Shown: positions 26,760 through 45,095 of the stretch, one piece after another | How the letters are laid out: the number at the start of each line of letters is the position of its first letter | How positions within the stretch are numbered: position 1 is the first letter of the stretch | Position numbers and translations under genes: made by a program | Assembly: GCA_017461945.1 (NCBI GenBank) | Contig: JAFTSB010000057.1 | Location: forward strand, 3,594 to 67,593 | Reading direction: 5' to 3' | Source: Clostridia bacterium | Lineage (GTDB): Bacteria; Bacillota; Clostridia; Oscillospirales; CAG-272 | DNA: 64,000 bases | Notes under the pieces: model-generated | Database searches by the model: none | What the model was told of the DNA's origin: nothing | The model's input: only the letters and a program-made list of their open reading frames with translations

Positions 26760-26768
26760 CGAAACACC

Positions 26769-26866
26769 AAAAGAGCGCGCACCGCTGCGGTGCGCGCTCT
26801 TTTGGTTAAACTGCCACAGTAAGCCCCCTGTAAGGGGGCTTTTGTCGGAAATCCGACAAAGTTTTT
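26769..26866 (+). terminator. three consecutive hairpins closing the ffh-rpsP operon
   Basis: AGAGCGCGCAC / GTGCGCGCTCT plus TTT (26772-26803). AGCCCCC-TGTA-AGGGGGCT plus TTT (~26821-26843). TTGTCGG-AAAT-CCGACAA followed by AGTTTTTT (~26842-26866). Confidence 0.75.
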
Positions 26867-26875
26867 TCCCTTACC

Positions 26876-26904
26876 TTGACATTTCGGGGGACGGGTGTTA
26901 CAAT
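26876..26904 (+). promoter_or_regulatory. sigma-70-like promoter of the MFS gene
   Basis: TTGACA (26876-26881), 17-nt spacer, TACAAT (26899-26904). Confidence 0.7.
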
Positions 26905-26936
26905 TACCATATATTGATACTATAACGGAGGGAATT

Positions 26937-28217
26937 ATGAGTTTAACCATCTCTGCAAAGGCCAAAAAGATCACGTGGCTGCTTGCTATGGTCTATTTTG
27001 CCAGCTATTTGATGCGCAAAAACTTCTCGGTTATGCTGGCCGCTATTACGGCCTCGGGCTTTGACCCGGTTGCTCTTGGTGTGGTGGGCTCTGCAATGAC
27101 CATCTCTTACGGTGCAGGGCAGATCGTCAACGGTATTCTGGGAGATAAGATCAAACCCCAGTATATGCTGACCTGCGGCCTGTTTTTGGCTGCCGCGTGC
27201 AACTTTGCCATGTCCTTTTGTACCACGGTCACGCTGATGGCGGTGGTATGGTTTGTCAACGGCTTTGCACACGCCATGCTGTGGCCGCCCATTGTTCGCT
27301 TGATGGCAATGCACATGAATGACACCGAATATGGCTATGCCGCTGTTCGCATTTCTGCCGCATCCTCTATTGCGACCATCGTGCTATACTTACTCTCTCC
27401 CGTTTTGCTTAAGGTGATGGATTGGAACAAGGTGATCCTGTGTATCGGCTTTGCCGGTGTTGCCATTGCCGTTGCCTGGGTGCTGCTCAACCCCCGCTTG
27501 TTCCAAAAGGAGGGCGCTTCCTTGCCCACGGCCGATGGAGCAGAGGAAGCTGCCGCGCCTGCCGACGCCAAAAAGAACGTTCCGCTGCCGGCCATGGTCT
27601 GGCTGCCCATCGTGCTGATCTTTCTTGGTATTGTGCTGCAGGGTGCTTTGCGTGACGGCGTGGGCGACTGGATGCCCACCTATATGGCGCAGGCCTTTGA
27701 GCTGGATCCCGAAAACGCCATCATTACCGGTGTGGTTCCCGCTATTTTCAGCATCATCAGCTTTACGGCCTTCGACCTGCTGCATCGCAAGCTTCTCAAA
27801 AACGAGGTTACCTGTGCAGCTGTGATCTTCGTGGGCTCTACGGTTTGCGCAGGACTTCTTCTGATGCTCAATCTGTTGGGCGTTTCCGGCTGGGGCGCTG
27901 CCATTCTCTCCGCTTTGCTGATCGGTGTTCTGGTGGCTTGCATGCACGGCATCAACCTGATGCTGATTACCGTTGTACCTAAGAGATTTATTAAAAGTGG
28001 CAAGGTTTCTACCTTCTCCGGTCTGTTGAATGCCGGTACTTATGTGGGTGCTGCTGTGGCACTGCCGCTGTTCCCTGCTTTGGCCGAGAACTTTGACTGG
28101 AACGCCACCATCATCGCGTGGGCCGTCATTGCCGCTCTGGGGGCAATCGTTTGCTTCGCTGTCGTACCCTTGTGGACGAAATTCAGAAAAGAATACTCCG
28201 ATAATCCCGAGGTGTAA
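26937..28217 (+). CDS. MFS transporter, organophosphate:phosphate antiporter (GlpT/UhpC)-like
   Basis: About 12 TM helices. The N-terminal WLLAMVYFASYLMRKNFSVMLAAI matches the R-x-NFS pattern I associate with the OPA family. GGAGGGA SD before ATG 26937. Confidence 0.7.
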   Translation: MSLTISAKAKKITWLLAMVYFASYLMRKNFSVMLAAITASGFDPVALGVVGSAMTISYGAGQIVNGILGDKIKPQYMLTCGLFLAAACNFAMSFCTTVTLMAVVWFVNGFAHAMLWPPIVRLMAMHMNDTEYGYAAVRISAASSIATIVLYLLSPVLLKVMDWNKVILCIGFAGVAIAVAWVLLNPRLFQKEGASLPTADGAEEAAAPADAKKNVPLPAMVWLPIVLIFLGIVLQGALRDGVGDWMPTYMAQAFELDPENAIITGVVPAIFSIISFTAFDLLHRKLLKNEVTCAAVIFVGSTVCAGLLLMLNLLGVSGWGAAILSALLIGVLVACMHGINLMLITVVPKRFIKSGKVSTFSGLLNAGTYVGAAVALPLFPALAENFDWNATIIAWAVIAALGAIVCFAVVPLWTKFRKEYSDNPEV

Positions 28218-28221
28218 AGGG

Positions 28222-28259
28222 AAAAGCCGCAGTTTGCAAATGCAATCTGCGGCTTTTTG
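28222..28259 (+). terminator. intrinsic terminator
   Basis: AGCCGCAG (28225-28232) / CTGCGGCT (28247-28254) plus TTTTT. Confidence 0.75.
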
Positions 28260-28260
28260 C

Positions 28261-28289
28261 TTGACTTTCATTTTTGCTCGTGCTACAAT
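28261..28289 (+). promoter_or_regulatory. sigma-70-like promoter of the PHP-PHP-phosphoesterase operon
   Basis: TTGACT (28261-28266), 17-nt spacer, TACAAT (28284-28289). Confidence 0.65.
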
Positions 28290-28315
28290 AAAACCAAAGA
28301 AAGAGAGGTGCTGAT

Positions 28316-29353
28316 ATGAAGCAGTATCTGTTGCCCGAAAACGGGAATTTTTACAAGGCGAATATGCACACGCATACCAATATTTCCGACGGTGCATTCA
28401 CCCCGGAGGAGATCAAAAAGAAGTATTCCGAAGCAGGCTATTCCATCGTGGCCTTTACCGATCATGAGGTAATGGTATCGCAAAATCACTTAACGGATGC
28501 GCATTTTTTGGCCATTAACGCCGTTGAGACGATCACCAGCGACAAATGGCCGGGTGGCTATTGCTATAATAAGACCTACCACATCAATTTTTATGCCAAA
28601 TCGCCCGACATCACCCATTGCCCAGTACTTAGCGCCAAAAATATCTGGCAGGAGCACACCAAGGCCTATGCCACGCCCGAGATGATCGAGCACCCCTATA
28701 AGAACCACTATTCCATTGCCGGTGTGAACGATGCCATTCAAAAGGCCAAGGCCGCAGGCTTTTTGGTGTGTCTTAACCACCCGGTCTGGTCCAGCCAGGA
28801 TTATACCGACTATATGGGTCTCAAGGGTCTTTGGGGCGTTGAGGTCTATAACACCGGCTGCTATCGTGGCGGTCAGCACGATACGGTGCAGCCCATGGTT
28901 GATATGCTGCGCACCAACGAGCACGTTATGCCCGTGGCCGCCGATGACATTCACTCTGCCGGTGATGCATTTGGCGGCTGGTTGATGGTCAAGGCGGATC
29001 AACTGGAGTACACCACGGTGATGAATGCCTTGGAGCGTGGTGATTTTTATGCTTCCACCGGACCGGAAATCAAGGCACTATATCTGGAGGATGGTGTGTT
29101 GAAAATCGAAACCTCTGAGGCCTTTAGCATTTCGCTGATCAGCAGCTATCGCTACCACCGCGAGCGCCGCGGAACCGACGAGGCCCCCTTGACCGCCGCC
29201 GCCTTTGACCTGAATGAGTTCATCAAACAAAACAACGCTCACGCTTATCCTCGCAATACACCTTGGGTGCGCCTGGAGGTGCGTGATATGCGTGGCAATC
29301 TGGCCTGGACCCGTGCCTTCTTCTTGGACGAGCTGAACGGAAGGGGAGAATGA
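28316..29353 (+). CDS. PHP-domain metal-dependent phosphoesterase
   Basis: N-terminal KANMHTHTNISDG (H-x-H...D PHP motif), IVAFTDHE, and later AADDIHS. Confidence 0.8.
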   Translation: MKQYLLPENGNFYKANMHTHTNISDGAFTPEEIKKKYSEAGYSIVAFTDHEVMVSQNHLTDAHFLAINAVETITSDKWPGGYCYNKTYHINFYAKSPDITHCPVLSAKNIWQEHTKAYATPEMIEHPYKNHYSIAGVNDAIQKAKAAGFLVCLNHPVWSSQDYTDYMGLKGLWGVEVYNTGCYRGGQHDTVQPMVDMLRTNEHVMPVAADDIHSAGDAFGGWLMVKADQLEYTTVMNALERGDFYASTGPEIKALYLEDGVLKIETSEAFSISLISSYRYHRERRGTDEAPLTAAAFDLNEFIKQNNAHAYPRNTPWVRLEVRDMRGNLAWTRAFFLDELNGRGE

Positions 29354-29354
29354 A

Positions 29355-30410
29355 ATGAAACAGTATCTACTTCCCGAAAACGGCAATTTTTATAAAGCCA
29401 ACCTGCACGTACACACCACGGTTTCTGACGGTGCCACCACGCCCGAGGAGACCAAGGCCGGCTATGTGGAGCACGGTTATTCCATCGTTGCCTTTACCGA
29501 TCACGAGGTATTTGTACCGCAAAACGCTTTAACGGATGAGCATTTTCTTGCCATTAACGCTGTGGAACTGGCTGTTAACGACGGCTGGCCGGGCGGATTC
29601 AAATACAACAAGTCCACGCACCTCAATCTCTATGCCATGGATCCCAACAAGACCGATTGCGCTGTTTGCTCCGGCAAGTTTGTGTGGCTGGAGCAATCCA
29701 AGCCCTATATTTCTGAGGCTGCCGCCAACAACAAGTATCGCAAACACTATTCGGTGGCCGCCTATAACGATTTGATTCGCAAGGCGCGCGCTGACGGATT
29801 TCTGACCTGCTACAATCATCCCGTTTGGTCGATGCACAATTACAGCGATTACAGCGGTATGCAGGGCTTGTGGGGCGTTGAAGTCTATAACACCGGCTCG
29901 GCCCGTGGCGGCATGGAGGATACGGTTCAGCCCTTTGAGGATCTGCTTAACCAGGGGCAGCATCTGGTGCCCGTTGCTGCCGACGATGCCCACAGCCTTG
30001 GCGGCTCTGCTTACGGCGGTTGGACAATGGTGAAGGCTGATCAACTGGAGTATGTCACCGTTATGAAGGCCCTGGAGAGAGGGGATTGCTACTCCTCCAA
30101 TGGCCCCGAGATCAAGGAGCTTTATATTGAGGATGGCGTGGTGCATATGACCACCTCCGAGGCGGTCTTTGTTCGCCTGGTGACCAGCATCCGTTATAAG
30201 CATGTGAAGCACGGCACCGAAGAAGAACCCGTTACCGAGGTTGCCTTCGACATCAATCCTTTTATCGAGGGTGAAAAGGAATGCCGCGCTACCCGCACCG
30301 CTCCTTGGTTCCGCTTGGAGGTCAAGGATCGGCGTGGCAAGCACGCTTGGACAAGAGCTTACTTTTTGGACGAGCTGCAAGAAGCCCCCCACGAGGAGGA
30401 AGCCAAATGA
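29355..30410 (+). CDS. PHP-domain metal-dependent phosphoesterase, tandem paralog
   Basis: Starts 1 nt after the previous stop. Shares MKQYLLPENGNFYKAN, YSIVAFTDHEV and VKADQLEY with its neighbour. Confidence 0.8.
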   Translation: MKQYLLPENGNFYKANLHVHTTVSDGATTPEETKAGYVEHGYSIVAFTDHEVFVPQNALTDEHFLAINAVELAVNDGWPGGFKYNKSTHLNLYAMDPNKTDCAVCSGKFVWLEQSKPYISEAAANNKYRKHYSVAAYNDLIRKARADGFLTCYNHPVWSMHNYSDYSGMQGLWGVEVYNTGSARGGMEDTVQPFEDLLNQGQHLVPVAADDAHSLGGSAYGGWTMVKADQLEYVTVMKALERGDCYSSNGPEIKELYIEDGVVHMTTSEAVFVRLVTSIRYKHVKHGTEEEPVTEVAFDINPFIEGEKECRATRTAPWFRLEVKDRRGKHAWTRAYFLDELQEAPHEEEAK

Positions 30411-31948
30411 GAATCGCTTTGGTGGCCGATCTGCATCTATCCGATATTGAAAACACACCTCAGGAGGAAGCGCTGCATTGGGCCATTGAGGAACTGAACC
30501 ACCTGCAGCCGGATGCCTGTGCGTGGCTGGGTGATATCACCGCCTGCGGCGCACCCGACGCGGCCATTCGCTTTCGGCAAAAGATCAGCCGGCTTTCCTG
30601 CCCCTCGGTGACGGTGCCCGGCAATTCGGATCTGCGCACGCCTGCAACGGCGCCTGCGGTCCAACGCTTTTTTTGTAATGACCCTCAGGGCCTGAAGGTG
30701 GGGAACGTGCGCTTGGTGGGGATGGATCTTTCTCGCGATTGCATTTTGCCCGACGAGCGCGCACGGTTGGCAGCCATCGACGGCTGCGACGACCTTGTGC
30801 TGTGCAGCCATCAGCCGGCCAAATATCTGGACGAGGATTCCTTGGCCTTTTTGCGCGGCTGGATCAAGGAGCGTGTAGCCAAGCAACGCATTTTGCTGTG
30901 GGCCAGTGGTCATCGCCACGTGTATGAAAAGGGCGACTTTGAGGGTGTCCCCACCCTTTCAATGCGCGCGCTGGATCCGGATAAGTGCATTGGCGGCTCT
31001 GCGCAGATCTGCATTTTTGACACCGAGCAGGGTGTGGATGGTTTGACAGAGCTGAGCTATTCGCGCCATATGCCGGCGGCCTGGAGTGATGAGGAGCGCC
31101 GCGAATTTTCCGGATTCTTGGGCATCACCTGCTATAACAAAAGCAAGGTGGAGCGTGATATGCCCTTTGCCATCGAGCAGGGCGTGCGCCATTTGGAATG
31201 GCGAAGCATCAAAGAGGGAGAGATCTCCCTGCTGGAGGCCTGGCGTCGGGGCGGAGGAAAGACCTTCTCGCTGCATTTGCCGTCTATTGGATATAACGGG
31301 GAGATTACACACGCGCCCGAATTTCAAAGTGCCGCCATAGATGCGGTGCGGGCGGCGGCTGATATGGTCACCGTGCACCCACCTCAGCTCCCCATGGAGC
31401 ACATGCAAAGCGGATCCCCCATTTTTGAGGCACTTGCCGATACTATGGCAGAGGCGCTATTGCCTGTTTCAAGGGCCGGAATTGACATTTTGGTTGAGAA
31501 CAATCACACAGCCCCCGGCACCAAGCGTGAAACGTTGCGCTTGCCCTATGGCTGCACACCTCTGGATCTGATCGGCTGGCGGGAGGCCTTGCGTGCACGT
31601 CTGGGTGCCGATAGCTGCCACCTGCGCCTTGATATCGGGCACGCACGGAATAATATGCCATTCTCGCAGGAATATCCCATTGGTAAATGGTATGGCGTGA
31701 TCGGTAAAGAGGCGCGCGCCTATCATTTGCATCAGACGATTTATTCCAAAAAGGATAAAAAAATGCACAATCACCATCCCATCATGGGCTGGCACAACAG
31801 CTTTGTCTCCTTTGATGGTTTTTTATGGGCGTGGCACACCGGTGTGCTGAACCACGGGCCGTTGATCCTGGAGATTCGGGAGGGTGAGGGCGCTCCCGCC
31901 ACGTGGGCACGCCTGCAGCGTATGCTGCGCGAGGGTACTTGTCAATAA
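30407..31948 (+). CDS. fusion: calcineurin-like metallophosphoesterase N-domain plus xylose-isomerase-like TIM-barrel C-domain
   Basis: ATG overlaps the previous stop (ATGA). Phosphoesterase motifs VADLHLSD, LGDITACG, PGNSDL, ASGHRHV. C-terminal half has FSLHLP, VTVHPP, ILVENNH, LDIGHA. Confidence 0.75.
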   Translation: MRIALVADLHLSDIENTPQEEALHWAIEELNHLQPDACAWLGDITACGAPDAAIRFRQKISRLSCPSVTVPGNSDLRTPATAPAVQRFFCNDPQGLKVGNVRLVGMDLSRDCILPDERARLAAIDGCDDLVLCSHQPAKYLDEDSLAFLRGWIKERVAKQRILLWASGHRHVYEKGDFEGVPTLSMRALDPDKCIGGSAQICIFDTEQGVDGLTELSYSRHMPAAWSDEERREFSGFLGITCYNKSKVERDMPFAIEQGVRHLEWRSIKEGEISLLEAWRRGGGKTFSLHLPSIGYNGEITHAPEFQSAAIDAVRAAADMVTVHPPQLPMEHMQSGSPIFEALADTMAEALLPVSRAGIDILVENNHTAPGTKRETLRLPYGCTPLDLIGWREALRARLGADSCHLRLDIGHARNNMPFSQEYPIGKWYGVIGKEARAYHLHQTIYSKKDKKMHNHHPIMGWHNSFVSFDGFLWAWHTGVLNHGPLILEIREGEGAPATWARLQRMLREGTCQ

Positions 31949-31964
31949 AACGGACATACGTATC

Positions 31965-32006
31965 AAAAAAACGCCGACATTTCAGCGAAATGTCGGCGTT
32001 TTTTCT
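31965..32006. terminator. intrinsic terminator, usable from both strands
   Basis: ACGCCGACATT / AATGTCGGCGT stem flanked by A7 and T6. Confidence 0.8.
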
Positions 32007-32094: not shown

Positions 32095-34236
32095 TTATAC
32101 ATTTAACTGACGAACGACATTGACCTTTTTCTTCTTGGGGGTGTACAACAACTCGTATTGGCTTTCCAATCCACCATCGGCCTGCAGTACCAGTGTTACA
32201 CGGTCGGTTTCGGCGTGGGGCAGCTCAAAGCGCACCGTGGGGCCGCGATGGTTGCCGTTCGCTTCTGCAGCGGCGCTCCAATCCAGCAGCTCGATCACCT
32301 CGTCGCCCACCTTGGCACTGACGTGAACCGTGCCCGATACCGCCTTGGGGGTGTCGTTCAGCAGCCAAAGCTCTGCCTCAAAGGTTTCGCCCTCCTTCCA
32401 GTCAAACTTCGGGATCCTGGCGCTGAACAGGGTGGGGCGCATTGCTTTTTGTACATAGTAGTAGCAGGGCTTGATCTTGGTGGGGTAAGCGATCAGCTCA
32501 TTGCCTGCGGCGGTGATCCAGGGCTCGTTGTAGTCCCAGTTGATGCCCATGCTGCAGTGGGGCCACTGACGGCGGATCTCCTCAAAGGCACCGCGATAGC
32601 CCTCGCACTGCATCCATTGCTGCCCCTTTACCATTTCCTCCAGGGAGCTGGGAGTGCCGAAATAGTGCTCGTAAACATCCTGACAAACCCATCTGCTTTG
32701 CCCCCAGGCTTTAAAGCCGTGATGCGCTACCCACGCGGGGGTCTCACGAATGGGGAAGAGCTCGTCCTCGGGGATGATCTGCTTCAGGGTTTCGACGTCG
32801 GCGATAGAAGGAACGCCGAATTCGGTATAGGCGGTGTGATGGGAGCCTTGGAATTGCTGGAACACATCGCCGCCCTGGCTTTCGGAGTAGAAGACATAGC
32901 CACCGTGTGCCATGCCATAAAGGGGAGAGGTATAAAGGAAAGGACGCTTGTAGTCCAGCTCGAGGCAGAGCTTGTTGAGAAGGCGCAGAGGGGCAGACTG
33001 CTCATCCATACCCGACCAGGCGTTGAACAGCTCATTTCCGCCGCACCAAAAGGCAAGGCAGGGGTGATGGCGGAACTTTCTGATCATGCCGGTGGCTTCA
33101 TTTTCCAGGGTCTGCATATAATTGCCCACGTCGATGTACTCGTTACAGGCCAGCATAAATTCCTGCCAGAGCAGGATGCCTTCGCGGTCACAGATGTCAT
33201 AAAAGCTTTCCTTGGGAGTGCCTGCACCGCCCCACATACGAAAGATGTTCATGTGGCATTCCTTGGCAAGGCGGATCAACTCCTCATAGCGCGCCGCAGT
33301 GATCTCGCCCCAGAACAGCTCGGGGTTGACCCAGTTGGAGCCCTTGCAGAAGATGCGGCGATTGTTCAGCTCCACGGTGATGGGGGCCTCGTATCTGCCC
33401 TTGGGGAAGATAGAGGGGCCTCTTGCGCCCGCATTGCGCAGCAGGCGGAGGCGGCGGAAGCCCAGCTTGCCCGTGTGTTCCTCATGGCCGTTGCGCACCA
33501 CCCATGTGTACAGATAGGGCGCACCCTGACCGTTGCACCACCACAGCTCGGGGGTGTTTACGGTAAACTGCTTATCGGTGCCGCGATAGACCTCCTTGCC
33601 CTCCTCATCCAATAGCAGGATCTCACAGGGCAGAGCGCAGTCAAAGCTGCAACGAACGGTGCCCACGGTCAGGTCGTCGCTGATGTCTGCCAGCACCTCG
33701 CATGCGCCAATGTGGCTATCGCCACGCGTTTCAATATAGGTGTCGTCCCAGATACCGGAGATCAGCAAACGGGGGTTCCAGTCCCAACCGTAATAAACGG
33801 GGGGATTGCAGGATTCGTTGGCCTCGTCACGGGAATTTGCGTGGCCACGTCCGCTCTTGGGGTGGGGGTAAATATGTACCGTCAGCAGGTCATCCTGGCC
33901 GGTGAGATGTTCGGTCAGCTCGATCTCGTGACCGCGGAACATGCCTTCGTAAGAGAACAGCAGCTTGTCGCCCAGCAGGATGTCGTACCGATATTGAATA
34001 CCCTTTGTCACAAAGAACACGCGCTCGCCGGGTTGGCGCTCCAGCTGTAAGTGGGTGCGGTATTCCCAATGGTCGTTTTCCAAAGGAAGGAACTGCTTGT
34101 AGTTATCCGCGAACTGTACATCTGCAAAGTTGTGGGCGGTGGCATAGTCCTTCTGGATGTTACCGGGGACGGTGGCAGGGAACCACACGTCGGGCTCGGA
34201 GCAGTTTCGGCCTTCCCAAATTTGATAGAATTTCAT
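32095..34236 (-). CDS. glycoside hydrolase family 2 (beta-mannosidase/exo-glucosaminidase-like)
   Basis: GH2 layout with WCGGNELFNAW and a NEY acid/base-like block (ACNEYI); sugar-binding N-domain pattern VPGNIQKDY. Confidence 0.7.
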   Translation of the reverse strand: MKFYQIWEGRNCSEPDVWFPATVPGNIQKDYATAHNFADVQFADNYKQFLPLENDHWEYRTHLQLERQPGERVFFVTKGIQYRYDILLGDKLLFSYEGMFRGHEIELTEHLTGQDDLLTVHIYPHPKSGRGHANSRDEANESCNPPVYYGWDWNPRLLISGIWDDTYIETRGDSHIGACEVLADISDDLTVGTVRCSFDCALPCEILLLDEEGKEVYRGTDKQFTVNTPELWWCNGQGAPYLYTWVVRNGHEEHTGKLGFRRLRLLRNAGARGPSIFPKGRYEAPITVELNNRRIFCKGSNWVNPELFWGEITAARYEELIRLAKECHMNIFRMWGGAGTPKESFYDICDREGILLWQEFMLACNEYIDVGNYMQTLENEATGMIRKFRHHPCLAFWCGGNELFNAWSGMDEQSAPLRLLNKLCLELDYKRPFLYTSPLYGMAHGGYVFYSESQGGDVFQQFQGSHHTAYTEFGVPSIADVETLKQIIPEDELFPIRETPAWVAHHGFKAWGQSRWVCQDVYEHYFGTPSSLEEMVKGQQWMQCEGYRGAFEEIRRQWPHCSMGINWDYNEPWITAAGNELIAYPTKIKPCYYYVQKAMRPTLFSARIPKFDWKEGETFEAELWLLNDTPKAVSGTVHVSAKVGDEVIELLDWSAAAEANGNHRGPTVRFELPHAETDRVTLVLQADGGLESQYELLYTPKKKKVNVVRQLNV

Positions 34237-34251
34237 ACACGGTACCTCGTT

Positions 34252-34980
34252 TTATGAATTTTGATTTAGAATGGCATCTATGGCACACTGCGAAAGCAGG
34301 GCTTTTTTGTCATCGGGCAGATCGCAATGACCGCAATGGGGGATCTCATAGTATTGCACGTGTCGCCCGGCTTTCTTCATTGCGGCAACGAAGCGATCCG
34401 AATGCTTTTCCTTGTTTACCGCCTGGTCGGCTGCACAATGGAAGATATGATACGCAGCGGCAGGCATATGCGGTGCAAGGTGCAGGGGGGAAAAGCGCTC
34501 CAGCACTTGTTCTATGGTGCCCTCCTCGTGCCAAAAGGCGCTGTACAGGGTGCGGGGCAGATCCGGGCGCTCGGTCAGGTGATAGGGGAGATCGCACACC
34601 GGGCAGTTGGCAATGCAGGCCACGGGGGTGCGCTTTGCATAGTGAGTATAGACCAGGGCGCATAGTCCACCCATGCTACCGCCGGTGGCCACCACAGGGA
34701 TGCTTTCAGGGAGCTTGTAGTGGTCGATCAGCACGTCCAGAATTTCGTCGGTCATAGCAACGGACTGGGGGTTCATCCAGTTCCACGGATTGTTATAGGG
34801 ATGCACATAAAGAATGCCGCGTTCTCCATAGTAAGCGCCGGCGCCGGTTTCGGCATGGAACATTTTGGTGTTGCCCAGCCCGAAAAAGGAAACGACAATA
34901 CCGCGCACGGGTGCTTGACACACGGCGGTGTTGACATAAGCAAAGCCTGCCAAATGCTCCATGGTAATCATTTTTTGCAT
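34252..34980 (-). CDS. alpha/beta-hydrolase esterase
   Basis: Nucleophile elbow GGSMGG, and HCAADQAV / PHCGH candidates for the acid/His. AAAGGAG SD before MQKMITME. Confidence 0.7.
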   Translation of the reverse strand: MQKMITMEHLAGFAYVNTAVCQAPVRGIVVSFFGLGNTKMFHAETGAGAYYGERGILYVHPYNNPWNWMNPQSVAMTDEILDVLIDHYKLPESIPVVATGGSMGGLCALVYTHYAKRTPVACIANCPVCDLPYHLTERPDLPRTLYSAFWHEEGTIEQVLERFSPLHLAPHMPAAAYHIFHCAADQAVNKEKHSDRFVAAMKKAGRHVQYYEIPHCGHCDLPDDKKALLSQCAIDAILNQNS

Positions 34981-34996
34981 GCGTAGCTCCTTTTCC

Positions 34997-37294
34997 TTAA
35001 AACTCACTGGCAAGTGCCGCCTGCTCGCTTTTCAGGTGCTGAATGGATTCAATCACCGGGATTTCTCCTTCCGCTGCGCTTGTGGGGGTGGCCAAGAAAA
35101 AGGTGGAATGGCAAGAGGCCAAGGTCAAACGCAGGTTGGTGTAAGGCTCTCCCTTATAGGAAAGAAGCTTGCAGCGGCGTTTGACCATTGAGCCGGAGTG
35201 AGGATCCCATTCCTCCACCTCAAAGGCGCCACGCAGCAGTACGTGATGGTCATATGGCGTTTTGGTAGTGTTGGAAAAATAATAGATGTCACAATCGTCG
35301 TGCTGCTTGTGGATATGATTGATCATACCGCCGCCCGGTATGGTGCGGTGCAGACCAAGATTGTGAAATTCGGGATAAACGGAATTCAGCGCGCCGGTGA
35401 TCTCCAGGCGCGACATACCCGGCATATAAATGTCATAAGGTAGCTCAAAGGAGTTCAGCGCATCGTTGACCGTGGTGCTGCGCACCATGCGGGTGCCGTC
35501 TGCTGCCGAGGCGCTAAAGTACAAAAAGATGGCCTCGCCGCCCTGTGCATTGCGGTGAATGCAGTAATTACGCATGACCGCAGGGTCGCAGGCTTCCTCA
35601 CCAAAAATAGCGCGGATCAAGCGGCAGACCTCACGGTCATTTTCGCCGCTTGCATCGTATTCAAAGGCCTTGGTGGGTAGAACTCCTGTGGCCAGTATTT
35701 TACCGCCCTCGTCATAAAATTTCTTTAACGTTTGCAAGTTTTTCAAACTGATCATCGTGGTTCCGGGGAGTACCACCACGCGGAATTTCTCGCGGTTGCA
35801 GGCGTTATCCAGGTACAAAACACCACCCTCGGTGCGGCAACGGGTATTGACGGTTTCGGGGTGCAGTAAGGTCAGATCGTGACCGGAATAGATCGAGATC
35901 GAATTGATCAGGGTCATATAATCAGCACTGGAGGGCGTGGAAGGATATTCATATCCGTCGGCAGGGGAAAAGTAAAGCCCGGTTTTGCTGTGAAGATCAT
36001 AGATAGGATAGAGCATGGCAATATCGGCCACGTGCCTGCCGCCGCGCAGCAGGGTTTGAGTGCGGGCCACAAAATCGCAGAAATCGCTGTTGGCCGTCAG
36101 CTCGTCGGATAAATGCAGTGCCGTGCAGTTGGCACCGCGAGCAAAGGCGTTCATGGCGTCCTTGTATTGACGCTCGCGGTCATGCTTGGCGTAATTGCGG
36201 AACAGCTCTGCGTTGACGCGCTCGATGTCAAAATTATACGCCGCGCCCGCTGCTACCTTGACCGAATTGGTGCCGTACATATAGGCCTTGTCAAACAGGG
36301 CGCAGGGGGCGTAGATGTTATTGAGCATCGCATCACCCATGGAGAAGGAGCAGGAGGTCAGCTTAGGCTCAGAAAGGTTGCCAAAGGGGGTCAGCCCCAT
36401 CTCGGTGGCAAAATCCCGCAGCGCGCGCAGGATGCCGTTTTGCAGCAGCGAGGCACGCAGGGTCATAAAGCAGGATTTCAGGTGGTCGGTCTCCTTGCCG
36501 ACAAAGCCGAACAGGGCAGGGTAATAGGGGGCAGGGTCAAAGCCAAAGCGCTTTTCAAACAGGCGGTTAAAGGCGGGATCCCAGCTGCGCCGGTTGCGGC
36601 CATTAAAGCCGATGCCCGAATAGGAAATGATATTCAGCGTTTTGCCAAGATAGGGGGCAAAGGTGTCGGCAAACAGCGAAAAGACCGCGCGGATATAGCT
36701 CATGGAGGCTTCATAGGAAAGGTAGTTAGCCCCCTCTCGTTCGGTGTCGTCCACGGCCAGATATTCCCGGATCACATAATTGCCGGCGGGCACCTGCCAA
36801 ATCAGCATCCCATCCTTTACAAAGGGGCGCAGATCGATCAGCTCGCAAAACTCCTCATCAACGGCTACCAGCGACATACGCTCGCCGGGGGTCAAACGGC
36901 GATTGGTGGTTTCTCCACGCTCGCAAATGTATTCCTTGCAGATCAGAATTTTGGCGCGCATGCATTCCTCGCCGATCTCGCTCATGGTGCGGATCACCGC
37001 ATTCTCATAAGCCGGATCCAGATAAAAGCCTACGGTCAATCCCCATTCCTCGGCACGGCGCAAAATAAAAGCATACATGGCCCGGATGTTCGCCAGCGTG
37101 TCGGTATTCAGGGCAGTCCCCATGGGCAGCTGCGGAATCAACGTGCTGCAGCCGCTACGGCGGCAACGTGCCATTTCTGCCTGTAAATAGGATTCAAAAT
37201 TGGGATCATCTGCCGCAGGGAGGGTGAAATAGTACATGGGTCTGCGCGCATTGGTGGGAGTCATAAATGTGGCGCGGCGCTTGTTGGTGGGCAT
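34997..37294 (-). CDS. large uncharacterised protein, putative glycoside hydrolase by context
   Basis: 765 codons. AAAGGAGG SD before MPTNKRR. Heads the operon with the esterase and GH2 genes. I recognise no catalytic motif. Confidence 0.6.
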   Translation of the reverse strand: MPTNKRRATFMTPTNARRPMYYFTLPAADDPNFESYLQAEMARCRRSGCSTLIPQLPMGTALNTDTLANIRAMYAFILRRAEEWGLTVGFYLDPAYENAVIRTMSEIGEECMRAKILICKEYICERGETTNRRLTPGERMSLVAVDEEFCELIDLRPFVKDGMLIWQVPAGNYVIREYLAVDDTEREGANYLSYEASMSYIRAVFSLFADTFAPYLGKTLNIISYSGIGFNGRNRRSWDPAFNRLFEKRFGFDPAPYYPALFGFVGKETDHLKSCFMTLRASLLQNGILRALRDFATEMGLTPFGNLSEPKLTSCSFSMGDAMLNNIYAPCALFDKAYMYGTNSVKVAAGAAYNFDIERVNAELFRNYAKHDRERQYKDAMNAFARGANCTALHLSDELTANSDFCDFVARTQTLLRGGRHVADIAMLYPIYDLHSKTGLYFSPADGYEYPSTPSSADYMTLINSISIYSGHDLTLLHPETVNTRCRTEGGVLYLDNACNREKFRVVVLPGTTMISLKNLQTLKKFYDEGGKILATGVLPTKAFEYDASGENDREVCRLIRAIFGEEACDPAVMRNYCIHRNAQGGEAIFLYFSASAADGTRMVRSTTVNDALNSFELPYDIYMPGMSRLEITGALNSVYPEFHNLGLHRTIPGGGMINHIHKQHDDCDIYYFSNTTKTPYDHHVLLRGAFEVEEWDPHSGSMVKRRCKLLSYKGEPYTNLRLTLASCHSTFFLATPTSAAEGEIPVIESIQHLKSEQAALASEF

Positions 37295-37381
37295 AGAGTG
37301 ACCTCCTTTGCTTGCTACTACCACAAGTATATCATATTTTCTTGGTAATTTCCATAGCGTATGTAAATTTTTTAGGTATCA

Positions 37382-40271: not shown

Positions 40272-41126
40272 TTACCGTGCTTCGCGCTCTGCAATCCGGC
40301 GCACACGGTTAAGGGCAAGTGCATAAAAATCGGCCAAGGGCATAGCGCGATAAGCATCATGGTCCGACCGGCCGGGGCTGGGAGTCAGCTTCAGCTCACA
40401 CATCAGTGGTCCGCGATAAGGCGAGGCGTCGATACGATCCATCACGTTCTCCCAGTTGACAATGCCGTCACCGGGGGGGAGATGCATATCGTTGTAGACC
40501 CAAAGGGCAGAATCGGTTTCAGGCGCCCAGCGCCCGTGGTTGTCGTTGAGATGCGTGAGGCAAAGCTTGTGGCCGTAAAGGGCCATCATATCCTTGCCGC
40601 GATTGTGGCACTGCTCGTGACCGGTGTCAAAGCAAAAGCCGCAGGCGGGGGAGTGGCCAAAGGTCTGCATGACGGCGGCCAAATATTCTTCACCCTCCAA
40701 GTTCTCAAACCCAACCGTTACGCCGTTTTGTTCCGCCGTGTCCAAGATGCGAGCATAGCGATCCAGTCCGATCTGTGACAGAGGCGGAAAATGATAGCCG
40801 ATGCAGGGGTGTACCACCATCACCTGCACGCCGTGCCGGGCGCAATCCCGGATGCAATCCATCAGCATAGTGGCTACCGCATCTCCTGCTTCTCCTTCAC
40901 GCCATAGCTGGGGCGTTTGCTTGCAGGGGGCGTGAATGGAATAGTAGTCAAGGCCGCATCGCTCCGCCGTTTTGGCCAGCATGGCGGTCTGGTCGGGCTC
41001 CCAGGCTGTAAAGAAGGCATCAAAGCCTGCATCCCGCACCATTTCGATCTGCTGCTGTGTGGGGTAGCGACTGGTGTCGCCCAAAATGTTGATACCGTAG
41101 GTTCGTTTTTTTGACATTTGTATCAC
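40272..41126 (-). CDS. xylose-isomerase-like TIM-barrel protein (sugar phosphate isomerase/epimerase family), paralog 1
   Basis: FENLEGE, DTGHEQCHN, LTHLNDN, PGDGIVNW. Start uncertain (GTG 41126 or ATG 41117). Confidence 0.75.
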   Translation of the reverse strand: MIQMSKKRTYGINILGDTSRYPTQQQIEMVRDAGFDAFFTAWEPDQTAMLAKTAERCGLDYYSIHAPCKQTPQLWREGEAGDAVATMLMDCIRDCARHGVQVMVVHPCIGYHFPPLSQIGLDRYARILDTAEQNGVTVGFENLEGEEYLAAVMQTFGHSPACGFCFDTGHEQCHNRGKDMMALYGHKLCLTHLNDNHGRWAPETDSALWVYNDMHLPPGDGIVNWENVMDRIDASPYRGPLMCELKLTPSPGRSDHDAYRAMPLADFYALALNRVRRIAEREAR

Positions 41127-41956
41127 AAAGAGCGGTCACGTACACGGCGTGCGCGCTCCAGGGTCAAGGCGTAAAACGTGTCAATGGGCATATTGACATA
41201 CGCTCCGTGTGTGTTGCGTTCGGGCTTGTTTTTGGTGGTCAGCTCGCAGGAAAGCACGCCCTCAAAGGGGGAGGCCTCAATGCGTTCCATAACGGTCTTC
41301 CAGTCCACAATACCGTCACCCATAGGCAGGTGGGAATCGTCGTACCACGTAATGATGTCGCCGGTGACACCCAAATTGTCATCAAAGTGCGTGTGGCAGA
41401 GCTTTTCACCGTAAAGGGCCATCATATCACTGTTGCGATAACATTGCTCGTGGCCGGTGTCATAGCAAAAGCCAACGCAGGGCTCGTTCCAGAATTTTTG
41501 CATGACGGCAGCGAGAAATTCCTCTCGCTCGGTGTTCTCAAACGCCAGCTTTACGCCATGCCTGTTGCCGGCCTCGATAATGCGGGCATAGCCGTCCAAT
41601 CCCACCTGCGTGGGGGCAGCAGGGGTCTTGGGCGAAAAGCCGTTCATGGTGTGCAGCACCACGACCGGGATGTCAAAACGAGCGCAATCCTCGATACAAG
41701 CGATCATGGTGGCAATCTCCTTTTCGCCGTCCTCACCGCCGTTCCAAATACGGTACTCGTGGCTGAAGGGAGCGTGGAGAGAGGTGTAGATCAAGCCGTT
41801 TTTGGCACCCGTTTCGGCCCATTTTTCCACGTTGTTGTGATCCCAGCTGGTGAAAAAGGCATCCCAGCCGATTTGCTTGACCAACTCAATGTGCTGGGGG
41901 ATGGTCAGCTCGCTTCGTCCGCCCTGTATGTTAATGCCAAGCTTAAATTCTTTCAT
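41123..41956 (-). CDS. xylose-isomerase-like TIM-barrel protein, paralog 2
   Basis: FENTEREE, DTGHEQCYRNSDMMALYGEKLCHTHFDDNLG, MGDGIVDWK. GGGAGA SD. Confidence 0.78.
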   Translation of the reverse strand: MKEFKLGINIQGGRSELTIPQHIELVKQIGWDAFFTSWDHNNVEKWAETGAKNGLIYTSLHAPFSHEYRIWNGGEDGEKEIATMIACIEDCARFDIPVVVLHTMNGFSPKTPAAPTQVGLDGYARIIEAGNRHGVKLAFENTEREEFLAAVMQKFWNEPCVGFCYDTGHEQCYRNSDMMALYGEKLCHTHFDDNLGVTGDIITWYDDSHLPMGDGIVDWKTVMERIEASPFEGVLSCELTTKNKPERNTHGAYVNMPIDTFYALTLERARRVRDRSL

Positions 41957-41958
41957 TG

Positions 41959-42810
41959 TTACATCTCCCGGTCTCTGACCTTGCGTGCCCGATTCAGAGC
42001 AAAGGCGTAATATTGATCAATGGACATTGCGGCATAGGCGTCGTGATCGGGTCTGCCGTTTTTGTTGTGACGGGTCAGCTCACAGATCAGCGGCCCTTCG
42101 TAGGGAGAAGCATCAATGCGGTCCATTACGCCCTTCCAATCCACAATGCCATCGCCCATGGTCAGGTGCAGGTCATTCTTCCAGCTCAAATCAATGGGCA
42201 GGGTCTTGTCAATGGTGCCAAGATTGTCATTGAAGTGGGTGTGACACAGTTTTTCGCCGTAAAGTGCCATCATGTCCTTGCCCCCGTTATAGCATTGCTC
42301 GTGGCCGGTGTCCAGGCAAAAGCCACAGCTGGGCTCGTTCCAGAAGGTTTTCATCAGGGCGGCTAAATATTCCTCACCCTCTACGTTTTCAAAGCCAAGG
42401 GTCACGCCCAACTTATTGGCAACCTCAATCACACGGGCATAGTTATCCAGACCTACTTGGGTGGGGGTGTGGTCCTTAAAGCCGATGAAGGGGTGAATGA
42501 CCATCACAGGGATGTCAAAGCGTGCGCAATCCTTTACGCAATCGATCAGCGCGTTGGTCACAAACACACCCTCCTCGCCCTCGCGCCACATGCGGCTGAC
42601 CTTATAGTCGCCGCTGAAGGGGGAGTGGATGGATTGATAGATCAGACCGTTACGGGCGGCGGTGTTGGCCCATTCCTCTACCTTGTTGTGATCCCAACCG
42701 GTGAAAAAGGCATCCCAGCCCACCTGCTTGATCAGATCAATGTGCTGTGAAACGGTCATGCCGGGGACGTCGGCAATGATGTTAATGCCCAGCTTATACT
42801 GTTTAGCCAT
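41959..42810 (-). CDS. xylose-isomerase-like TIM-barrel protein, paralog 3
   Basis: FENVEGEE, DTGHEQCYNGGKDMMALYGEKLCHTHFNDNLG, MGDGIVDWK. AAAGGAG SD before MAKQYKLG. Confidence 0.78.
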   Translation of the reverse strand: MAKQYKLGINIIADVPGMTVSQHIDLIKQVGWDAFFTGWDHNKVEEWANTAARNGLIYQSIHSPFSGDYKVSRMWREGEEGVFVTNALIDCVKDCARFDIPVMVIHPFIGFKDHTPTQVGLDNYARVIEVANKLGVTLGFENVEGEEYLAALMKTFWNEPSCGFCLDTGHEQCYNGGKDMMALYGEKLCHTHFNDNLGTIDKTLPIDLSWKNDLHLTMGDGIVDWKGVMDRIDASPYEGPLICELTRHNKNGRPDHDAYAAMSIDQYYAFALNRARKVRDREM

Positions 42811-42845
42811 GTTGAAAACTCCTTTCAAAACGGTATACCGTGTGC

Positions 42846-45095
42846 TTATTTTTGTGCCTGTGCGGCGTAATAGTTCATCAGACAACCGCGCAGAATGATT
42901 TCCTTTTCGTTGTCGGTCAGCCCCTTGATGTACAGTACGATGGGCTCTGTCGTGCCGTCTGCGCGGATCACCTTGGCAGGAAAGGCCTCGCAGCCCGCTG
43001 CAATGCCCTCGCGCACATCGGGGACAAATACAAAATCGCCCTCGCTGTACTCAAACTTGGTCTTGGGATCCAGCGTGAAGGGGAGAATACCCCAGTTGAT
43101 GCAGTTAGAGCGATAGCGCTTGGTGGCAAATTCATAGCAGATATTGGCAAAGCCACCCAGCACCTTCTGGCAGGAGGCGGCTTGCTCACGGGCCGAGCCG
43201 TCACCCGGCTTATTTGCAAACACGCAGGAGCCAAATTGGGTCACAGGTGCCAGCTCCTCCGCTTTTCCCACCTTGGATAGGGCAAAACGGATCTTCTCCG
43301 ACAGCTTGCCCTCCCGGCGCGCAGCCTCGTCGGCGGCAACCGCCTTGGAACGTCCCACATATGCGGGGCACCGGCGAGAAAGGGCAAATTCAGAAAGGCG
43401 CAAGGGGTTAGAACGGTAAGAGGAGGTCTCGCCGGAGGGGATCAACTCGTCGGTGGTAGTGACGGGATCGTGAATAACAGCGGCCAACTCTAAGAGCATA
43501 TTATCGGCAAGCTCGTACATTTTCGGCCAGTCGGTGATGTTGGGGCCAAGGATCAGCTCGGCTTCCTTATCGGCCTTGCCAAAGCCATAGTAGCAGCGCT
43601 TTTCATAAACCGAGCGATCATAGTGATACTTGTGCATCTCGTGGTCGTAAGTCACATCGGTGGCGGCGGTAATGATGCCGCCGTTGGCGGCGGTAGCTGC
43701 AATGGAGCGTGCATCCATCAGTGCCACGCCTGAAAGCTGACCCTCACCGGGCTTAGAGCCCTCGCGGTTGGGGAAGTTACGGGTGGTGTGACGGAGCGAA
43801 AGACCGTTGTTGGCGGGCACATCGCCGGCACCAAAGCAGGGCCCGCAGAAGGAGGGCTTGATGACCGCGCCGTTTGCCAGAAGATCGGCAGAAACGCCAA
43901 TGCGGGTCAGCTCCAGAGATACGGGCACGCTGGTGGGATAGACCGACAGTGAGAAATAGCTGTTGCCCACATTGCCGGTTTTGAGAATGGAGGAGGCCTC
44001 ATCAATGCTGTCAAACATACCGCCGGCGCAGCCTGCGATAATACCCTGATCGGCCATGACCTTGCCATCGGGGCGGACCTTGGAGACCAGATCCAGCTTG
44101 GCCTTTTTTCCAAACTTTTCCGCGGCTTCAGCCTCTACCTCTGCCAGCAGCTCCTTTGCGTGCTGGTTAAAATAGTGAATGGTATACGCTCTGGAGGGGT
44201 GGAAGGGCAGGGCGATCATCGACTCCATTTTTGAAAGATCGATCTCTACCATGCGGTCGTAGTAGGCCACCTTGCCGGGCTGCAGCTTTTTGTAGTCCTC
44301 GGGTCTGCCGTGGGCCTTGTAGTGCTGCTCCACCACCTCATCGGTCTCCCAAATCGAGGAAAGGCAGGTGGTTTCGGTGGTCATTACGTCAATGCCGTTA
44401 CGGAAGTCCATGGGCAGCTCCTTCACACCGGGGCCAACGAACTCCAGCACGCGGTTTTTCACAAAGCCGCTTTCAAAGGTGGCACCCACCAGGGCAATGG
44501 CCACGTCGTGGGGACCGATGCCCTTTTTGGGCTTGCCGGTCAGATATACCAGAACCACCTCGGGGGTGGGAATGTCATAGGTGTTTTTCAAAAGCTGCTT
44601 GACCAGCTCAGGGCCGCCCTCACCGACGGCCATCGTGCCGAGAGCGCCATAGCGGGTGTGGCTGTCCGAGCCCAGGATCATAGCGCCGCATTTGGCCATT
44701 TCCTCACGGGCAAAGGAATGGATGACGCTTTGATTGGCGGGTACGTAAATGCCGCCATATTTTTTTGCGGCAGAAAGTCCGAATACGTGGTCGTCCTCAT
44801 TGATGGTGCCGCCAACCGCGCAAAGGGAATTGTGACAGTTGGTCATGGCATAGGGCATAGGGAATTCCTTCAAGCCGCTGGCACGGGCGGTCTGGATGAT
44901 GCCCACATAAGTGATATCGTGAGAAAGCATCGCATCAAAGCGGATGTTCAGCTGTTCGTCATTGCCGGAGGTGTTATGCGCTTGCAGAATGGAGTACGCA
45001 ATGGTGTTTTTGCGTGCCTCTGCAGGGGTGAGAGGGGCGGTTGCGGCCACCTTGCCGTCAACAAGATAAACGCCCTTGTCGGTTAATTTGATCAT
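42846..45095 (-). CDS. aconitase-family Fe-S hydratase (putative aconitate hydratase)
   Basis: ILGSDSHTRYG, IIAGCAGG and FCGPCFGAG (aconitase cluster-ligand contexts), with a C-terminal swivel-like domain. AAAGGAG SD. Confidence 0.82.
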   Translation of the reverse strand: MIKLTDKGVYLVDGKVAATAPLTPAEARKNTIAYSILQAHNTSGNDEQLNIRFDAMLSHDITYVGIIQTARASGLKEFPMPYAMTNCHNSLCAVGGTINEDDHVFGLSAAKKYGGIYVPANQSVIHSFAREEMAKCGAMILGSDSHTRYGALGTMAVGEGGPELVKQLLKNTYDIPTPEVVLVYLTGKPKKGIGPHDVAIALVGATFESGFVKNRVLEFVGPGVKELPMDFRNGIDVMTTETTCLSSIWETDEVVEQHYKAHGRPEDYKKLQPGKVAYYDRMVEIDLSKMESMIALPFHPSRAYTIHYFNQHAKELLAEVEAEAAEKFGKKAKLDLVSKVRPDGKVMADQGIIAGCAGGMFDSIDEASSILKTGNVGNSYFSLSVYPTSVPVSLELTRIGVSADLLANGAVIKPSFCGPCFGAGDVPANNGLSLRHTTRNFPNREGSKPGEGQLSGVALMDARSIAATAANGGIITAATDVTYDHEMHKYHYDRSVYEKRCYYGFGKADKEAELILGPNITDWPKMYELADNMLLELAAVIHDPVTTTDELIPSGETSSYRSNPLRLSEFALSRRCPAYVGRSKAVAADEAARREGKLSEKIRFALSKVGKAEELAPVTQFGSCVFANKPGDGSAREQAASCQKVLGGFANICYEFATKRYRSNCINWGILPFTLDPKTKFEYSEGDFVFVPDVREGIAAGCEAFPAKVIRADGTTEPIVLYIKGLTDNEKEIILRGCLMNYYAAQAQK

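Follow-up and report, generated by a model that had tools for sequence, protein, structure and literature searches.

Sugars and polyols linked by phosphodiester bonds are abundant in the gut, e.g. in teichoic acids, phosphoglycans, glycerophospho-compounds and inositol phosphates. To our knowledge, their use by strict anaerobes is poorly understood. The pairing of a transporter with phosphoesterases is a familiar arrangement, found in glpT-glpQ and in similar operons, and GlpQ is a periplasmic GDPD enzyme. In C-P lyase pathways a metallo-beta-lactamase (MBL)-type protein, PhnP, and a PHP-type cyclic phosphate dihydrolase have the same function, with a sugar cyclic phosphate as substrate. Here, we analyse a cassette of four genes within a 64,000-nt stretch of DNA from a Clostridia bacterium (contig JAFTSB010000057.1 of assembly GCA_017461945.1, positions 3,594 to 67,593 of the forward strand; the whole stretch is called the window hereafter). 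The cassette encodes a transporter of the major facilitator superfamily (MFS), two PHP-domain proteins (PHP-A and PHP-B) and a protein in which a metallophosphodiesterase domain is joined to a TIM barrel (the fusion). This gene set and the fusion appear to be new. Our literature searches found no paper on either of them, and searches of structures, families and literature brought up no protein of the long PHP family or the fusion family that has been characterised.

We propose that these genes form an accessory cassette that serves to catabolise an imported organophosphate or to scavenge its phosphate, an interpretation to which we give an even chance. The MFS protein would import an anionic phosphate ester by means of two arginines whose counterparts in GlpT bind phosphate. 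Two cytoplasmic PHP enzymes with trinuclear centres, together with the GpdQ/Rv0805-like N-terminal domain of the fusion, would then hydrolyse phosphoester or phosphodiester bonds, and the C-terminal barrel would isomerise or epimerise the sugar or polyol set free and so allow its entry into central metabolism. Among classes of substrate, the likeliest are sugars or polyols that are phosphodiester-linked or carry several phosphates and that stem from complex glycans or membranes of the gut. In this proposal we give most weight to the arginines of the transporter, to the repeated order of an MFS gene followed by a PHP gene, to the exchange of the fusion for a sugar isomerase in one species and to the fusions with further partners in other lineages.

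The window belongs to a 2.2-Mb metagenome-assembled genome (MAG), 85% complete, whose closest public relatives are gut MAGs, from ruminants and other hosts, that are labelled Clostridia or Oscillospiraceae. The four genes lie on its forward strand. The transporter gene (26937..28217, 426 aa) starts at an ATG located 7 nt past GGAGGG; a longer frame, which opens with a GTG at 26895, does not represent its start. Upstream is a promoter-like site (26876..26904, forward strand, TTGACA-17-TACAAT with a TG-extended -10, 11/12 matches), the -35 hexamer of which, at position 26876, opens the segment discussed here. Downstream is a terminator-like hairpin (28214..28265, forward strand) with 25-nt arms (84% complementarity) and a T-run after it; it overlaps both the MFS stop codon and the -35 element of a second promoter-like site (28261..28289, forward strand, TTGACT-17-TACAAT, TG-extended, 10/12 matches). 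The latter precedes PHP-A (28316..29353, 345 aa), PHP-B (29355..30410, 351 aa) and the fusion gene (30407-31948). PHP-A and PHP-B are 1 nt apart, with a GGGGAG ribosome-binding site within the 3' end of PHP-A, and the start of the fusion gene overlaps the PHP-B stop as ATGA. This gap and this overlap indicate that the three genes form one operon. A bidirectional intrinsic terminator (31966..32004, both strands), with an 18-bp stem and a T-run on either strand, is shared with a convergent GH2 gene. The region holds five promoter-like sites against 4.4 in shuffles, i.e. no excess, and those of the MFS gene and of the PHP operon have the best scores and the best placement among the five. The leaders are short, about 20-30 nt (about 30 nt for the MFS gene), and an Rfam search for a riboswitch or leader gave nothing above threshold, with sub-threshold Thr_leader matches on terminator hairpins only. 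A first-pass annotation, made from the letters alone, had given these four genes, positions, gap and overlap, and the open reading frames and the sequence bear it out. It had also given the transporter its own promoter and terminator and the operon a separate promoter, and the corresponding sites are present, as promoter-like sites and a hairpin with a T-run.

The transporter has ten to twelve hydrophobic segments and matches the Pfam MFS_1 model with 123.9 bits (E 9e-36). Its best NCBIfam matches are models of organophosphate:phosphate antiporters (OPA, TC 2.A.1.4), and its closest PDB matches by sequence are GlpT (1pw4, residues 18-418, 6.6e-15) and the glucose-6-phosphate exchanger SLC37A4. 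When it is aligned with GlpT of E. coli, the positions of R45 in transmembrane segment 1 (TM1) and R269 (TM7) are both arginine. Among 28 aligned relatives, the former position holds arginine in 26 and lysine in 2, and the latter arginine in 21 and lysine in 7. Residues Y38, Y42, Y76, D88 and Y393 of GlpT, among them several tyrosines of the pocket, are also kept. The transporter is distantly OPA-like (GlpT/UhpC/PgtP/SLC37 type) and lies outside every named OPA subfamily.

We then surveyed 40 species genomes of the genus; many of these are incomplete, and absence means not found with the query used. Four other species carry the cassette at the corresponding site, downstream of ffh-rpsP-KH. It is complete, as MFS-PHPA-PHPB-fusion, in the window genome (G000) and in G002, and occurs as MFS-PHPB-fusion in G278; a contig break separates the MFS gene from PHPB-fusion in G012; and in G023 the series MFS-PHP-PHP is followed by a FucI-like isomerase (PF02952) in place of the fusion. 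In each of the four cassettes that can be assessed, and probably also in that of G012, the MFS gene comes before a PHP gene, whichever of the two allele types the transporter belongs to. The MFS and PHP genes of G023 probably form a single operon, since the 23-nt gap between them contains a ribosome-binding site only, without terminator or promoter. This exchange of the fusion for a FucI-like sugar isomerase fits a scheme in which a compound is dephosphorylated and its sugar then isomerised. Across the genus, the MFS gene is found at 54% identity or more in seven genomes and the fusion in six of the 40, with close sequences in G000, G002, G278 and G012 and distant ones in G007 and G282. The PHP genes fall into three subtypes; in the same four genomes G000, G002, G278 and G012, the gene that immediately precedes the fusion is of type B.

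Both PHP proteins pass the cut-off of the Pfam PHP model (PF02811, 26.4 bits), PHP-A with 32.2 bits and PHP-B with 28.8, and they are 61% identical, so that they are indeed the tandem paralogs that had been described at this locus. The AlphaFold model of PHP-A (pLDDT 94.6) comprises a PHP trinuclear-metal domain with a distorted (beta/alpha)7 barrel (about residues 10-245) and an Ig-like beta-sandwich (about residues 248-343). In an alignment of 29 PHP sequences, which took in both window genes and three paralogs of the same genome, nine ligand positions are invariant (H18, H20, D25, H50, E71, H89, H155, D211 and H213); we take them to map onto the trinuclear ligands of histidinol phosphate phosphatase. 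The family is large and unnamed, with more than 1,700 clusters at 90% identity, mainly from Clostridia MAGs. It is present in 36 of the 40 genomes of the genus, with up to six copies in one of them, and in 35 of 251 genomes of the order, usually as one copy, most genomes having none or one. A search of the PDB with the sequence of the PHP protein gave nothing significant, and a search of the ESM Atlas returned only the proteins' own families. The window genome carries five paralogs of the 345-aa PHP protein. Three lie outside the cassette (L006, C68:45787-46809; L007, C11:6858-7892; L008, C61:74994-75983). Of these, one comes after an AraC regulator, with a GH38 mannosidase nearby, another is flanked by genes for a short-chain dehydrogenase and for a histidine phosphatase, and another comes after an ABC ATPase. 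Only one longer, fused form of the family was found, a metagenomic protein of 869 aa (P0228) that joins a PHP part of 36% identity to a PF13320 domain.

The fusion was modelled with high confidence by AlphaFold (pLDDT 95.8, pTM 0.93). Its N-terminal domain (residues 1-220, 30407..31066, forward strand) is of the Rv0805/GpdQ (class III, with CpdA) type and scores 30.6 bits with the Pfam Metallophos model (cut-off 21.5). The ligands D8, H10, D43, N73, H135, H169 and H171, which make up the DxH, GD, GN, H and GHxH motifs, are invariant in 29 sequences, and the histidine of the GNH(D/E) motif is a serine (GNSD) throughout the family; in YfcE-type enzymes this position is presumably a cysteine. The C-terminal domain (residues 233-513, 31103..31948, forward strand) is a TIM barrel of the xylose-isomerase-like/AP_endonuc_2 type. 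It scores 20.9 bits with AP_endonuc_2 (PF01261), under the cut-off of 31.1, and many homologs carry the domain in precomputed annotation. Model and fold searches (Z 19.5-21.8) confirmed the barrel, in which E364, D409, H440 and E489 are conserved, along with further invariant His, Asn and Gln residues. Three metal-dependent phosphoesterase domains and a sugar isomerase/epimerase-like barrel had been read from the letters, and this description stands, with complete metal sites and a barrel established by model and fold. No hydrophobic segment was found in PHP-A, PHP-B or the fusion, from which we read the three enzymes as probably cytoplasmic.

The fusion is rare: among 1.84 billion representatives, it forms 214 clusters at 50% identity (E <= 1e-30), and a motif scan of one-per-species genomes gave 201 matching stretches. 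It occurs in Clostridia, Lentisphaerota/Victivallales, Kiritimatiellia, Armatimonadia, Latescibacterota, Anaerolineae and Gemmatimonadota. We analysed its neighbourhood in 80 species, using tblastn and HMM searches over all frames. In 25-27 of them, the gene immediately before the fusion encodes an RNase Z-like MBL hydrolase (about 257 aa), or such a hydrolase is joined to the N-terminus of the fusion protein. In 12-13, a short PHP domain is fused to the C-terminus of the fusion or encoded just downstream, and the ESM Atlas holds a cluster of 153 proteins with this arrangement of fusion and short PHP domain. The 345-aa PHP gene is adjacent in three species and the MFS gene present in two, all from the genus under study. 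With the MBL hydrolase and the short PHP domain counted together, the fusion is adjacent or joined to a third metallohydrolase in about half of the 80 species. No other recurrent partner was found, rhamnosidase, GFO/IDH/MocA and other proteins appearing two or three times each among 71 proteins. These recurrent neighbours and fusions point to a further phosphoesterase as a recurrent partner of the fusion, which tends to work with one more phosphodiesterase whose fold varies. One might speculate that the fusion is the core of an undescribed, rare module in glycan-degrading anaerobes of several phyla, in which a second phosphodiesterase is required and is interchangeably an RNase Z-like MBL protein, a short PHP or a 345-aa PHP, and which in this genus was joined to an OPA-like importer to give a complete, new route for phosphodiester-linked sugars or polyols. 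We regard this wider view as possible but doubtful.

Several observations weigh against an organophosphate cassette. The scores of the transporter reach a third or less of every curated OPA cut-off: 120.4 bits against 407.75 for TIGR00881, 83.9 against 632.55 for the glpT model, 47.8 against 564 for UhpC and 28.9 against 750 for PgtP. A carboxylate (ACS) transporter model, TIGR00893, also scores (75.5 bits), and two residues of the GlpT binding pocket are replaced in the window transporter and in most of its relatives (K80 by Q, H165 by S). The MFS gene of the window genome has its own promoter-like site and terminator-like hairpin. G009 retains the MFS gene in this position and has neither a PHP gene nor the fusion next to it, the genes after it having been identified by similarity to the window genome only. 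Genes of the PHP-A type also stand alone after rluD-lnt in four other genomes of the genus. Across the order the neighbours of the PHP family are miscellaneous housekeeping genes, none of them constant, and the family usually stands alone. The four-gene set was not found outside this uncultured genus in the genomes searched, and searches of E. coli genomes gave no match. Finally, we found in the cassette no regulator, kinase, aldolase or dehydrogenase that would complete a catabolic route. These points delimit what can be kept of the first-pass annotation. Its GlpT/UhpC-like transporter agrees with GlpT and SLC37A4 as the nearest PDB relatives and with the presence of both arginines, while all OPA cut-offs are missed. 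Its suggestion of a shared pathway, for which lack of co-localisation in other genomes was named beforehand as the refuting outcome, agrees with the recurrent order of MFS, PHP and fusion genes within the genus and with the tight operon of G023, while the co-localisation stops at the genus. Its idea of uptake followed by dephosphorylation and isomerisation keeps the support of the transporter arginines, the metal sites, the synteny and the isomerase exchange of G023; a stepwise order of dephosphorylation, like any particular substrate, is pure conjecture.

The relatives of the transporter outside the genus give a varied picture. They occur in 39 of 251 genomes of the order, and we fetched 29 loci with relatives of 30-40% identity, the neighbours of which varied. 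In four of the 29, a phosphodiesterase of the NPP/alkaline-phosphatase type (254 aa) adjoins the MFS relative (L107:731-1495, L112:704-1468, L103:2718-3560 and L126:654-1490); in L107 and L112, the two of these that were inspected, its gene is on the same strand as the MFS gene and overlaps the start of the latter. This is a different pairing of transporter and esterase, which may share the substrate class. In one of the 29, the MFS relative has beside it a gene with weak similarity to PHP, which encodes 465 aa and scores 24.5 bits with the Pfam PHP model, under the cut-off; this gene aside, neither the 345-aa PHP family nor the fusion was found beside MFS homologs elsewhere in the order. The tex gene adjoins MFS relatives in two genomes (L104 and L110).

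The enzymes might instead process nucleotides or nucleic-acid fragments, such as cyclic nucleotides, 3',5'-bisphosphates, short oligonucleotides or damaged ends, with a transporter that is unrelated or that imports nucleotide-like phosphates. Fold comparisons match the PHP protein to PHP structures with Z of 15.8-19.1. The best are BVU_3505 (19.1) and TM0559 (18.8), and then come BAD_1165 (17.6), EndoQ (16.4) and RNase AM (15.8), which, with Cv1693 and its bound AMP, would suit a role on nucleotides. Yet we detected no domain for the binding of nucleic acids, and the PHP protein has an Ig-like sandwich as its C-terminal domain. The N-terminal domain of the fusion is closest to the cyclic-nucleotide phosphodiesterase Rv0805, in fold (Z 24.4) as in a profile search of the PDB (6e-10), where Mre11 and SbcD also score, whereas a search with the single fusion sequence gave nothing significant. 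But the glycerophosphodiesterase GpdQ ties with Rv0805 in fold (Z 23.6). The same ambiguity affects the barrel, which aligns with seven of nine metal ligands of endonuclease IV (Endo IV): sugar isomerases and epimerases equal or exceed Endo IV in fold similarity, and an ordinary barrel of the window shares most of the Endo IV histidines. The MBL partner of the fusion in other lineages resembles RNase Z most, with a further match to Apyc1, and the PHP family is usually found among housekeeping genes (rluD, trmO, dnaE). Set against this, a sugar isomerase replaces the fusion in G023, where the MFS and PHP genes are probably co-transcribed, and the genomic neighbours of the cassette are glycoside hydrolases (GH2, GH106-like, GH127). 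A role on nucleotides or nucleic-acid fragments is, in our view, unlikely.

Another explanation is that there is no shared pathway. The transporter would be a long-standing resident near ffh-rpsP-KH, and independent genes (PHP paralogs, fusion, GH2, esterase, GH106) would have accumulated in a variable region. The site indeed exists in three states within the genus: KH running straight into GH106 (G277 and G014), KH-MFS followed by another gene (G009, with the MFS gene only), and KH-MFS-PHP(s) followed by the fusion or the isomerase. In the window genome, the promoter-like site and hairpin of the MFS gene agree with independent expression. The locus also appears to be a mosaic, because the two allele types of the transporter (G000/G023 and G002/G278) are only 57% identical (56-61% between types) while PHP-B remains 85-92% identical across genomes of the genus (89-92% among G000, G023, G002 and G278). 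Between G000 and G002, for example, the identities are 56% for the MFS protein, 90% for PHP-B and 72% for the fusion. Yet chance accumulation accounts poorly for an MFS-then-PHP order that persists across both allele types, for the 23-nt junction of G023, for PHP-B and fusion genes that are always adjacent and translationally coupled, and for PHP or MBL domains fused to the fusion protein in other lineages. We consider it distinctly unlikely that the genes are unrelated neighbours; if they were, the finding would be ordinary. As to the site itself, the stretch from KH to the GH106-like gene (26760-26936 and 32095-37324 in the window) is variable, with cassettes plus GH2 and esterase genes elsewhere.

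The barrel might also be a trinuclear phosphoesterase like Endo IV. The cassette would then comprise four phosphoesterase centres that strip a polyphosphorylated compound, e.g. inositol polyphosphates of feed phytate, with no isomerase step, and several paralogous phosphatases would suit positional specificity on such a substrate. Alignment with Nfo of E. coli by hhalign pairs seven residues of the fusion with zinc ligands (H324/H109, E364/E145, D409/D179, H412/H182, H440/H216, H456/H231 and E489/E261), and H290 lies three residues from the position of H69. The paired residues are invariant in the fusion family, and the fold matches Endo IV with a Z of 19.7. However, the hhalign probability is only 67-69%, and the equivalent of D229 is unconserved. 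A control barrel in the window (41123-41956) also has histidines at the positions of H290, H324, H412 and H440 and shares at least five Endo IV ligands, so that these residues do not discriminate. Nor do the Z-scores, which are effectively tied between MJ1311 (21.8), the isomerase Art22 (21.2), tagatose and allulose epimerases (about 19.8) and Endo IV. The nfo model TIGR00587 does not match the fusion, to which no NCBIfam family matched, although it hits other barrels of the same genome, and the FucI-like isomerase of G023 takes the place of the fusion. An Endo IV identity of the barrel, attractive from the alignment, is thus not singled out by the control or by the Z-scores, and we think a cassette with four phosphoesterase centres clearly improbable. 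Since an ordinary barrel of the window shares most of the Endo IV-like histidines, that of the fusion may belong to the isomerase or to the Endo IV branch. The control barrel is one of three tandem xylose-isomerase-like barrels encoded on the reverse strand (40272-42885) between aconitase-like and isocitrate-dehydrogenase-like genes.

To the detoxification of xenobiotic organophosphates or carbamates (flame-retardant diesters, pesticides) we give hardly any credence: the CehA/McbA metallohydrolase model NF038032 aligns with the full length of both PHP proteins, and PHP-family diesterases acting on organophosphate diesters have been described (PMC5460133, PMC11656708), but the scores (50.5 bits for PHP-A, 70.9 for PHP-B) are under the cut-off of 80, the host degrades glycans anaerobically in the gut or rumen, many Clostridia of the gut carry the PHP family, and a sugar-isomerase-like barrel would serve no purpose there.

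Opposite the MFS and PHP genes, the reverse strand of the window contains long open frames (27390-28397 and 29529-30458), and so does the reverse strand of a further locus (L131, 1787-3529). Such frames reach 580 aa in a relative and could mislead gene picking by longest frame.

If the organophosphate cassette that we favour is real, it joins three enzyme families without a studied member to a transporter that hints at the class of substrate. It is also a compact entry point, with three soluble proteins and natural variants that carry one or two PHP genes and either the fusion or a FucI-like isomerase. The recurrent partnership of the fusion with an MBL or a PHP protein is in addition a clear case of interchangeable metallohydrolase partners.

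Comparison with known systems shows how far each part departs from its closest relatives. The structural-genomics PHP phosphoesterases BVU_3505 (PDB 3e38) and TM0559 (2anu) are about 20% identical to the PHP proteins, and BVU_3505 also combines a PHP barrel with a beta-sandwich; since neither has a known substrate, these matches give no function. The alternation of MBL-type PhnP and a PHP-type dihydrolase in C-P lyase pathways parallels that of the MBL or PHP partner of the fusion, but PHP-B matches the corresponding PHP model only over its first 37 residues (NF041661, 20.8 bits against a cut-off of 500), and no phn genes were seen near the cassette. With xylose-isomerase-like barrels (MJ1311, Art22, tagatose and D-allulose 3-epimerases, UlaE, IolE) and with Endo IV, the barrel of the fusion has in common the fold and the E-D-H-E metal positions. 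It differs from them by a score below the Pfam gathering threshold, by its extra invariant His, Asn and Gln residues and by the covalently joined phosphodiesterase. The N-terminal domain has the fold of GpdQ from Enterobacter aerogenes and of Rv0805 (root mean square deviation 2.0-2.4 over about 190-206 residues) and all seven ligands of their binuclear site, yet it is only 21-23% identical to them, carries GNSD where they have GNHD, and alone is joined to a TIM barrel. The closest parallel in organisation is glpT-glpQ of E. coli, in which an OPA-type MFS gene likewise adjoins a phosphodiesterase gene and whose transporter has the same arginines in TM1 and TM7. Here, however, the transporter is 24% identical to GlpT and falls far below the cut-offs of the glpT models, and the esterases that accompany it are probably cytoplasmic, of the PHP and Metallophos types and with a barrel attached.

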